From positions 712,214 through 736,213 of the forward strand of contig NZ_JAPDIA010000003.1 of NCBI RefSeq assembly GCF_029525575.1: DNA of 24,000 nucleotides. Reading direction: 5' to 3'. Each line of letters starts with the position of its first letter. The stretch's first letter is position 1. The translations under genes and the position numbers were made by a program. Source of the stretch: Cohnella rhizosphaerae. Its GTDB lineage: Bacteria > Bacillota > Bacilli > Paenibacillales > Paenibacillaceae. Under the pieces are notes generated by a model. The model was not told the origin of the DNA, made no database searches, and was given only the letters and a program-made list of their open reading frames with translations. Below are positions 12,675-14,810 of the stretch, piece after piece.

Positions 12675-13521
12675 TCAAGATGCGGAGTCGGCATCTTGAG
12701 GAGGCTGCGGGGCTTGCTGCGGCTCGGTCGTTTCCTCGTATCTGGCCAGCGTCCAAGCCGCCGACTCCCGCATGCGCCGGCGCAGCTGATCGCCTTCGAC
12801 GATACGAACCCGGCGTCCGAGGAAGCGGATCTTGGACAGCAGGAATTCGCTCTCGTCGGCTAGGCAGGATACCCGTATGCGGTACAAGTCCAGGTCCTCA
12901 TCGTAGCTGACGGTCTTATCGAAGCAGGAGAAGGCGTAGAGGATCCGGGATAGCTCCGCGTTGTATTCGCGGACGATCTCGATCACCGCGGGGGGTCCGG
13001 CGCTCCTCGAGGAGTGCGAATGCCCGGCTTCGCAAGGCCTCGAAGCGCTCCGGCGGAAGCGGGAGGGGCTTCGCGGATACGATATGCTGCAGCTTGCTCG
13101 ACATGAGGCCGCGGGCATTGTACCAGAGAAGGTACCACTCCCGCTTGACCATATTGTATTCCAGCTTGACGGGCAGTCCGTTCTGATTGGCCTGGACGCC
13201 GCCGTGCTTGAGCCTCGTCGTGAGCCTGATTCCGCTGCCCTCCTGAATCATGCGGCGCAGCGGACGGAGCAGGGGATGATAGACCTGTCTTTCCCGGCTT
13301 TTGGCTTTTTGCATGATATATTCGCGGCTGTCGATGGTAGCCTCATTCCGCAGCAGATCGCGTAGCCGTGACAACGTTCCCTCTGCGAACGCGTCGTCCG
13401 ACGCCGGATGCTCGAGCATTGTTTTCAGCCATGAACGCTCGTGGGTCGTGAGGGCGATCGAATCCGCTTCGTCCAGACGCGACAGAATCTGATAATTAAA
13501 GATTTTCTCGAACGGGTTCAT
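12675..13521 (-). CDS. WYL-domain protein (no obvious HTH); one frame break in this assembly
   Basis: The two minus-strand ORFs 12916..13521 and 12675..13118 join if the C6 run (G6 on the + strand, 12990-12995) is read as 5. Contains the WYL-like core LPVKLEYNMVKREWYLLWYN. The start overlaps the upstream gene by 26 nt. Confidence 0.7.
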
Positions 13522-14810
13522 AGTAGGCCTGAATCTCCTTCCATTCGGCGATCAGCTCCCGGCGCAGCCATGCGGGCTCCAGAACTTCGCAGCTCGAGCC
13601 GAAGCTGCGCAGCCACGGCTTGATCTCGTAAATGCCGTTGACCTCGATCTCATAGAGGAAGGTCGTGTCCGACTCGTCCGTCAAGACGCCCCATTGGCCT
13701 TGGGCCTCGACGCGTTCGCGTACGAAGTTCGCGCCCGCCCGTCCCGGGTTGTAGAATCGCGCCCGGATCTTCACGCGCCGGTGCGAGTCCGTCACCCAGC
13801 TGTGTTCGAGCTCCTGTTCGACGGCCTCCAGGCGCCGGCCGAAGGTTTCCGCGTCTACGGCCTCTCCCATCTCGATCTGGGTGATGCCCTCCAGGCGATA
13901 CTTCATGGTGCCGAGCCGGGGGCTGTGTCCGATCAGATACCAGCGGCCGTATTGATGGTCGTAAACGACGCGAAGCGGCAGCGTCGTCTCCACGCGACCC
14001 TCCGTCTCGCGCTCGAACAGAGGGTTCGTGTTTTTAGAGGCATAGTTCTTGCCTTTTTTTTGGCGACAGGTAGAGGAAGGTCAGCTTGCGGTGCTCCCTG
14101 ATCGCCTCGAATATCGTATACAGATGCGCCTCGTCGAGAATGCGCGTGTGATAGTGATATTTGTACAGATGAACGTCGAAGGTCTCGGGTCCGTAGCCGC
14201 GTCTTGTCAGCGCCTTCTTCAGCGTATCTCGCAGCAGATAGCCCTGTACGGCAGGCACCTGCGTGTTCGCCATTACATCGACATAGTCGTAAAGGTCAAG
14301 GAGTTCCTCGTCCGACAGCCGATCGATGAGATCGATATCGGCGCGGTATCTGTACGGCCGACCGCCGTCCAGGCGGCGGATAACGCCGACCTCCTCCAGA
14401 TACTTGAGATCCCCGCGAACGGTCTTCTCGTCGGGGCAAGCATACTCGGACGGCATGCTGTCGCTGCAGGCGTTCAGCAGTTCTTTGGCGGTCATTGCTT
14501 CGCCCTGCATCAAGCCGATCAGGACCGCGAGCCGGACGCTTTCCGAATCCTTCAGCGACTTGGACCTGAAAAGAAACAGCAGCAGCGGGTCCGCGGATTC
14601 GTAATGGTTGTAGCGCAGACCTTCGGCCAGGTCCTCGGCTGCTTCCGAGGACAGCACCGTTCGCATGTCCTTGATATAGCGCAGCGTCTTGTCGTACGTA
14701 TGCACGGAGATGCCAAGCCGGTCGGCGAATTGCTGCCTGCTGTAGGCTCCGCCCGCCAGAGCGAGCATGCGAAGAAATTGAACCTCTTTATCGAAGCTTT
14801 CCCGCGCCAT
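13496..14810 (-). CDS. HTH-WYL-WCX type transcriptional regulator; one frame break in this assembly
   Basis: Minus-strand RBS AGGAGG lies 7 nt before the ATG (complement of 14808-14810). The N-terminus has a wHTH (QQFADRLGISVHTYDKTLRYIKD). The WYL core is LPLRVVYDHQYGRWYLIGHS. ORFs 14034..14891 and 13496..13993 join if the A8 run (T8 on the + strand, 14054-14061) is read as 7. Confidence 0.8.

Follow-up and report, generated by a model that had tools for sequence, protein, structure and literature searches.

The WYL gene pair and its genomic context

This analysis concerns two adjacent genes of Cohnella rhizosphaerae (Paenibacillaceae), here called WYL_A and WYL_B, which are divergent from an array of RNA-repair genes, and a 22-bp box that stands in front of both units of that array. 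The window analysed is a stretch of 24,000 nucleotides (nt) of assembly GCF_029525575.1 (NZ_JAPDIA010000003.1, 712,214-736,213, forward strand) in a genome of 8.5 Mb, and all position numbers are window coordinates. As judged from sequence comparison, the pair is with good probability the dedicated regulator of the box-fronted RNA-repair units. The two genes are laid out as follows.

13496-14810, minus strand: WYL_A gene, start at 14810; 437 amino acids (aa) after dropping one A from 14054-14061
12675-13521, minus strand: WYL_B gene; 281 aa after dropping one C from 12990-12995
13496-13521, minus strand: overlap of the WYL_A end and the WYL_B start, 26 nt, read as translational coupling

The pair forms a conserved cassette. 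A single intact copy of WYL_A is present in 133 of 200 sampled Paenibacillaceae genomes, with a patchy distribution within genera (7 of 20 in Cohnella, for example). We collected 60 WYL_A loci from 14 genera with 20 kb around each and mapped the proteins of the window onto them. WYL_A is followed by a same-strand WYL_B in 59 loci, and the remaining locus is rearranged. RNA-repair genes (RlaP, Rsr, RtcB, Hen1-Pnkp) are found on the divergent side within 10 kb in 46 of the 60, and the sets vary: RlaP alone, RlaP-Hen1-Pnkp, Rsr-RlaP, Rsr-RtcB, RlaP-RtcB, or the full set as in the window. Among the called genes of Paenibacillus odorifer, the WYL pair is divergent from RlaP-Hen1-Pnkp. Eight further loci have as divergent neighbour a box-preceded SPFH/Band-7 gene (PF01145), which replaces the repair genes. 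Local regulators classically show this pattern of a constant cassette beside changing but related neighbours. In a sample of 400 genomes of the class, WYL_B was found in 28 of 33 genomes of the window's family, in 17 of 34 of a second family and in three elsewhere, while more than 40 other families of that sample gave no match. The open reading frame (ORF) downstream of WYL_B (11726-12655, no Pfam match) was found beside the pair in none of the 60 surveyed loci; a related gene occupies the same place in the near relative L107.

Neither WYL gene is a single open frame in the assembly. The ORF listing gives four pieces (14034-14891, 13496-13993, 12916-13521 and 12675-13118), and three-frame translation placed the frame shift of WYL_A in the A8 run 14054-14061, which falls midway through the WYL domain, and that of WYL_B within the C6 run 12990-12995. 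Once one base per run is dropped, both proteins align end to end with hundreds of intact homologues (437-441 aa for WYL_A and 265-281 aa for WYL_B) from Cohnella, Paenibacillus, Brevibacillus and others. The first-pass annotation had described two overlapping minus-strand genes; their coordinates, strand and overlap hold, but they are not open frames, each being broken by one added homopolymer base. L107 and L001 have the overlap too (26 nt and 14 nt, respectively), and a ribosome-binding site, AGGAGG, lies 8 nt upstream of the WYL_A ATG.

The relative L107 (GCA_030014955.1) has 93% DNA identity and carries every gene of the same locus intact. Compared with it, the window has one additional homopolymer base at each of 10264, 12990, 14054, 17008, 20665, 21520, 21623, 21666 and 22603; the genes hit are a DEAD/DbpA helicase, WYL_A, WYL_B, the 5′ end of rsr, rtcB and hen1. 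All nine coding-region indels are such +1 insertions, scattered over unrelated genes, and because of this the frame breaks of WYL_A and WYL_B are most probably assembly errors by homopolymer over-calling, not decay. Such over-calling would be systematic and would affect any gene call in this genome. That the WYL pair, rtcB, hen1 and others are true pseudogenes of this strain, in a system that is decaying, we regard as very improbable. The frames are broken in the sole sequence of the strain; against this, the nine indels strike unrelated genes, including the DEAD-box helicase, genome completeness is 91.5% compared with 99-100% for relatives, and apart from the single base the WYL gene sequence is conserved, with no further stops.

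The corrected proteins have the following domains (HTH, helix-turn-helix; wHTH, winged HTH).

WYL_A, minus strand: HTH_11-like region, about aa 8-50; wHTH, 88-160; helical linker; WYL barrel, 241-317; WCX, 345-435
WYL_B, minus strand: helical N-terminus, 1-75 (low confidence); WYL barrel, 85-153; WCX-like alpha/beta domain, 175-262

Corrected WYL_A matches WYL (PF13280, 29.6 bits, cut-off 21.8) and WCX (PF25583, 53.8 bits) and shows sub-threshold HTH matches in two separate regions. Across 39 members of its family, WYL and WCX were each detected in all 39, HTH_11 in the first region in 28 and HTH_DeoR in the second region in 30. The AlphaFold model (mean predicted local distance difference test score, pLDDT, 66; residues 1-85 of low confidence) displays the winged helix, the helical linker, the barrel and the C-terminal alpha/beta domain. 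WYL_A thus carries two HTH modules, one more than in the wHTH, WYL domain and C-terminal extension first described for it. WYL_B has no Pfam or NCBIfam match, and no HTH was detected in it with these libraries; its N-terminal 75 residues are helical and poorly defined in the AlphaFold model. The WYL model of PADLOC matches its residues 79-257 (E 4e-11). In the AlphaFold model (mean pLDDT 76, about 90 across the core) the barrel is followed by a ferredoxin-like domain, and this C-terminal alpha/beta domain aligns with the C-domain chains 7tzv and 9cu3 of DriD. The earlier description of the second gene as a WYL-like core with no evident HTH agrees with these results. By the layout of the HTH-WYL-WCX (YafY) class, WYL_A has all three parts and WYL_B has WYL and WCX but not the HTH. 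Public annotation names the homologues merely 'WYL domain-containing' or 'YafY family'.

Foldseek searches of the PDB ranked DriD (8tp8) first for both proteins (E 2e-14 for WYL_A, 8e-9 for WYL_B), followed by PafBC (9fnd, 6sj9) and then by WYL1 (6oaw), CapW and BrxR, with the CapW and BrxR matches weaker (E about 1e-4). Profiles of the two families found nothing among PDB sequences at E 0.01 or better, so the link to DriD and PafBC is made by fold comparison alone.

A 22-bp box accompanying the pair

Upstream of WYL_A there is a conserved 22-bp element, GAACAKGGCGNAAGTATKRCGA, which lies within 400 nt of the gene in 51 of 62 loci and mostly 86-140 nt from the ATG. The window has two copies.

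14885-14906, minus strand: box 1, GAACAGGGCGAAAGTATGGCAA; plus strand TTGCC-ATACTT-TCGCC-CTGTTC, a direct repeat in an 11-bp register
16603-16624, minus strand: box 2, GAACATGGCGCAAGTATGACGA, oriented like box 1

On the repair strand the consensus reads TCGYY-ATACTT-TCGCC-MTGTTC, a direct repeat whose copies are spaced by one helical turn. The box is rare. A weight matrix made from WYL_A-upstream sites gave two matches on both strands of the whole genome, box 1 and box 2, and these were likewise the sole genome matches of an exact-pattern search. Elsewhere, extra boxes directly front Hen1-Pnkp units on the far side of the pair, as well as distant Rsr, RtcB and SPFH genes. The orientation of the box relative to the downstream genes is constant, bar two weak exceptions (scores 26-28; L078 and L079).

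For a co-occurrence profile we used the 200 family genomes and the window's own, allowing up to two mismatches to the box pattern. The box was present in all 134 WYL_A-positive genomes and in 13 of 67 WYL_A-negative ones; a reversed-pattern control matched about 17% of genomes, and the rate in WYL_A-negative genomes is approximately that background. RlaP occurs without the pair in about 24 genomes, and since about 19 of these are also without the box, the box goes with the pair rather than with the repair genes. A second family of Bacilli likewise has the box upstream of WYL_A.

It has to be considered whether the box is an operator of the pair at all. It might be the site of another factor or an RNA leader, with the pair travelling along with repair islands or regulating something else; the assignment of box to pair was made by sequence comparison, and in five of the 60 loci there is no box within 20 kb of the pair. 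We consider this explanation improbable, as no regulator gene other than the pair is conserved beside the boxes in the loci surveyed, the box lies upstream of -10-like elements and outside structured RNAs, in two bacterial families it is part of the promoter region of the pair itself, and it is lacking in those RlaP genomes without the pair. An operator of the WYL pair is the reading that we retain.

Two other identities for the box were tried and rejected. As a sigma-54 promoter (GG-N10-GC on the WYL strand), the boxes, bar the two weak exceptions in L078 and L079, would point away from the repair genes, including at sites with no WYL gene nearby, and neither variant keeps both the TGGC and the TTGC element. 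A LexA/Cheo box was considered on account of the initial CGAACA; no GAAC-N4-GTTC was found in either intergenic region.

Several further genes stand beside boxes. In several genera, boxes remote from the pair are immediately followed by a member of one of two protein families without a Pfam match; one family, of about 308 aa, follows a box and a CATAAT -10, and the proteins of the other have 710-760 aa. The loci of the two families are L093, L095, L096, L100, L104 and L094, L098, L105. To go by their position, both families are likely further members of the regulon. In L072, at 23-1601 and read away from WYL_A, a 525-aa protein that is 26-28% identical to RtcB is encoded beside a box in one genus, and it may be a divergent RtcB paralogue. 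The loci with an SPFH/Band-7 neighbour are L062, L064, L069, L070, L072 and L086-L088, and a box-preceded SPFH gene is also seen in L097 (G145).

Putative promoters and gene units behind the boxes

Next to the boxes lie three putative promoters, read from sequence, and on the plus strand two gene units.

14839-14847, minus strand: putative extended -10 of the WYL_A promoter, TGATACAAT, with box 1 about 40 nt upstream
14902-14930, plus strand: putative repair promoter P1; TGTTCG at 14902-14907, a 17-nt spacer, and GAAAAT at 14925-14930 after TGC
16620-16648, plus strand: putative repair promoter P2; TGTTCG at 16620-16625, a 17-nt spacer, and GATGAT at 16643-16648
14975-15092, plus strand: Y-like element A, first product after P1; fold z -6.8; stem sequences in common with the YrlA-like RNA at 16735-16859
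15608-15945, plus strand: array of four tRNAs, His-GUG, Gln-UUG, Glu-UUC, Asn-GUU, after P1 and before box 2
15996-16592, plus strand: RNase-H-like gene (PF04308, YkuK-type), 198 aa in L107
16735-16859, plus strand: YrlA-like RNA B; match to Rfam RF02553 with E 2.9e-6 and 38.3 bits, short of the gathering score (69)
16996-18496, plus strand: rsr, with an extra A at 17008
18515-18976, plus strand: DUF6847 gene
19245-20030, plus strand: rlaP
20074-21339, plus strand: rtcB, broken in the assembly
21346-22731, plus strand: hen1, broken in the assembly
22619 to the window end (24000), plus strand: pnkp

Behind box 1 are Y-like RNA A, the four tRNAs and the YkuK-type gene, and behind box 2 are YrlA-like RNA B, rsr, the DUF6847 gene, rlaP, rtcB, hen1 and pnkp. 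The start of WYL_A is 165 nt from Y-like element A on the other strand, close to the 160 nt or so first given for this distance. A scan of the intergenic regions with Rfam returned the tRNAs and the sub-threshold YrlA and nothing at the box or leader. The His, Gln, Glu and Asn isoacceptor types of the array are targets of known anticodon nucleases, and the four genes may provide spare tRNAs that are co-expressed with the repair enzymes.

At the place of the WYL_A -10, TGNTACAAT is conserved in most of the 60 loci. On the repair side, box sites keep both the spacing and the GCGAAGAT/CATAAT element, and other genomes show GAAGAT or CATAAT as the -10-like hexamer. A scan for consensus sigma-70 promoters and terminators reported no promoter at the boxes, which is consistent with weak, factor-dependent promoters. 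The -35-like TGTTCG is poor, the spacer is fixed at 17 nt and the -10 hexamers (GAAAAT, GATGAT, CATAAT) are weak; a poor -35 with a weak -10 at such a fixed spacing is typical of activator-dependent promoters. The sequence at the putative -10 (GCGAAGATAGG; in the window GCGAAAATCAGG, at 14920-14935 and 16638-16652) is conserved beyond the needs of a -10, and it may serve as a second site of contact for protein or form the transcript's 5′ end.

We somewhat favour an activator over a repressor, because the box takes the place of the -35 at a fixed spacing from a weak -10 and because the top structural matches work as activators through contact with RNA polymerase. A repressor in the style of CapW and BrxR, sitting on the box and the conserved -10 region and released by a ligand, is possible, though we do not prefer it. 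CapW and BrxR have the same fold, and a box common to divergent promoters suits autorepression. Moreover, the putative -10 is covered by a likewise conserved sequence, GCGAAGATAGG, part of which repeats the box end CCATGTTCGC in inverted form; to go by these letters it could be a second operator, in a repressor-like layout, and this tells against activation. Promoters without a good -35 and with a weak -10 at a fixed distance from the box, on the other hand, suit activation, and the two activators DriD and PafBC lead the structural matches, with E-values lower by four to five orders of magnitude for WYL_B and by more for WYL_A.

Proposed regulation and relation to known systems

The conserved A+B cassette, its divergent linkage to changing repair sets, a rare box that tracks the pair and the lack of any RtcR match together point to the WYL pair as the probable regulator of the units behind the boxes. 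RtcR (PF06956) had no match anywhere in the genome, with E. coli positive as a control, so the pair would here fill the role that RtcR has in Proteobacteria. The first-pass annotation had proposed that a two-subunit WYL regulator replaces RtcR. The regulator role is strongly supported by these lines of evidence. We consider it likely that the proteins act as an A:B hetero-complex, given the conserved 14-26-nt gene overlap, the presence of WCX in both and the precedent of PafBC.

Translated from overlapping genes, WYL_A and WYL_B would assemble in the manner of PafB and PafC, and the complex would bind the 22-bp box where it abuts or overlaps the -35 position of the weak promoters. The direct-repeat operator would suit two HTH modules on one chain, and WYL_B would contribute a second sensor domain. 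A nucleic-acid fragment bound by the WYL domains would switch the complex on, and the switched-on complex would recruit RNA polymerase to P1 and P2, as DriD and PafBC do. Since box 1 is about 40 nt upstream of the regulator's own -10, the pair might also be autoregulated.

As to the ligand, the entirely RNA-centred regulon favours one derived from damaged RNA over single-stranded DNA (ssDNA), but we put the probability of this at somewhat below even. The same regulon might instead respond to ssDNA from DNA damage, with RNA repair as part of a response to DNA damage or phage attack. This seems unlikely to us, yet it has evidence in its favour: the closest folds are the ssDNA-activated DriD and PafBC, and the Salmonella rsr-rtcBA operon is reported to be induced in the SOS response (PMC9879122). 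Against it, sequence searches with either WYL family reached no solved WYL regulator at E 0.01 or better, and ligand specificity is therefore not transferable; no DNA-repair gene was seen beside a box in the loci examined; and WYL1 of Cas13d systems, as cited in PMC11804915, shows that single-stranded RNA (ssRNA) can be bound by a WYL domain. By that analogy an RNA input for the pair is plausible, and it would not make this the first RNA-binding WYL domain. Taken as a whole, the reading in which a sensor with one two-HTH subunit and one HTH-less subunit detects damaged RNA (e.g. tRNA halves, or fragments with 5′-OH or 2′,3′-cyclic phosphate ends) and activates an RNA-repair regulon of Bacilli is doubtful in its full form. 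Its regulon would include Y RNAs, spare tRNAs, Rsr, RtcB, RlaP, Hen1-Pnkp and the SPFH protein.

Besides the five box-less pairs and the mirrored -10 sequence, several points weigh against the proposed regulation by the pair. Both WYL genes are frameshifted in the assembly, and frameshifts that are genuine would leave this strain with a dead regulator. As the box pattern was derived from WYL_A-upstream sequence, its presence in WYL_A-positive genomes is partly built in, and the informative part of the profile is the background-level rate in WYL_A-negative genomes together with the genome-wide rarity. The related genomes are non-independent samples. An Hhalign comparison of the WYL_A and WYL_B families gave only a weak, collinear match (probability 28%), and WYL_B is therefore no recent duplicate of WYL_A. 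Lastly, the characterised relatives sense ssDNA (DriD, PafBC, CapW) or cyclic di-GMP (c-di-GMP), and PafBC is not activated by ssRNA (PMC11804915), which also speaks for the ssDNA alternative.

Among known systems PafBC, the DNA-damage activator of mycobacteria and Arthrobacter, offers a parallel in gene layout, with two adjacent genes for WYL-WCX proteins and a fold match to both structures found (9fnd, 6sj9). Its subunits are functionally asymmetric, the site from which it activates takes the place of the -35 region, and a 2025 description names it as the sole heterodimeric WYL regulator reported (PMC11804915). The likeness is at the level of fold, with no sequence-level match and no orthology to PafB or PafC. 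Both PafBC subunits are HTH-WYL-WCX proteins, whereas here WYL_A has two HTH modules and WYL_B none, and the systems differ in box, in taxon (here Bacilli) and in regulon (here RNA and not DNA repair). DriD of Caulobacter is the best structural match of both proteins, has the HTH-WYL-WCX layout and activates through contact with RNA polymerase; in contrast to the pair, it is a homodimer from one gene, with an ssDNA ligand and a DNA-damage regulon. CapW and BrxR share the fold class and are local regulators divergent from the systems that they control, but they are homodimeric repressors of CBASS and BREX phage defence and the weaker matches. WYL1, the Cas13d accessory protein reported to bind ssRNA (cited in PMC11804915), is a fold match too, and it is a nuclease modulator, not a transcription factor. 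RtcR of Proteobacteria resembles the pair in being a local, divergent sensor-regulator of an RNA-repair operon with rsr, Y RNAs and rtcB (PMC7790460), and differs in its CARF, AAA+ and sigma-54 logic: WYL_A and WYL_B have neither CARF nor AAA+.

A literature search returned no link between a WYL regulator and RtcB/Rsr/RlaP/Pnkp-Hen1 operons; an earlier mention in the survey of RNA-repair systems of Burroughs & Aravind 2016 (NAR) is possible. The subunit layout of the WYL regulator, its operator and its regulon may be new here, and the class of input possibly so.

We know of no account of how RNA-repair operons are controlled outside Proteobacteria, and RtcR is, to our knowledge, the sole regulator studied. 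The locus offers a candidate regulator together with a candidate operator that is rare enough to define a regulon by sequence, and the resulting list holds Y-like RNAs, a tRNA array of anticodon-nuclease target types and three uncharacterised protein families. If the proposed role is true, the pair would do in Gram-positive bacteria what RtcR does, with a sensor fold unrelated to that of RtcR. Among heteromeric WYL regulators it would represent a second kind, its DNA-binding modules distributed over the subunits in an unusual manner suited to a direct-repeat operator, and it would perhaps add RNA to the inputs of WYL transcription factors, the characterised ones of which answer to ssDNA or c-di-GMP.

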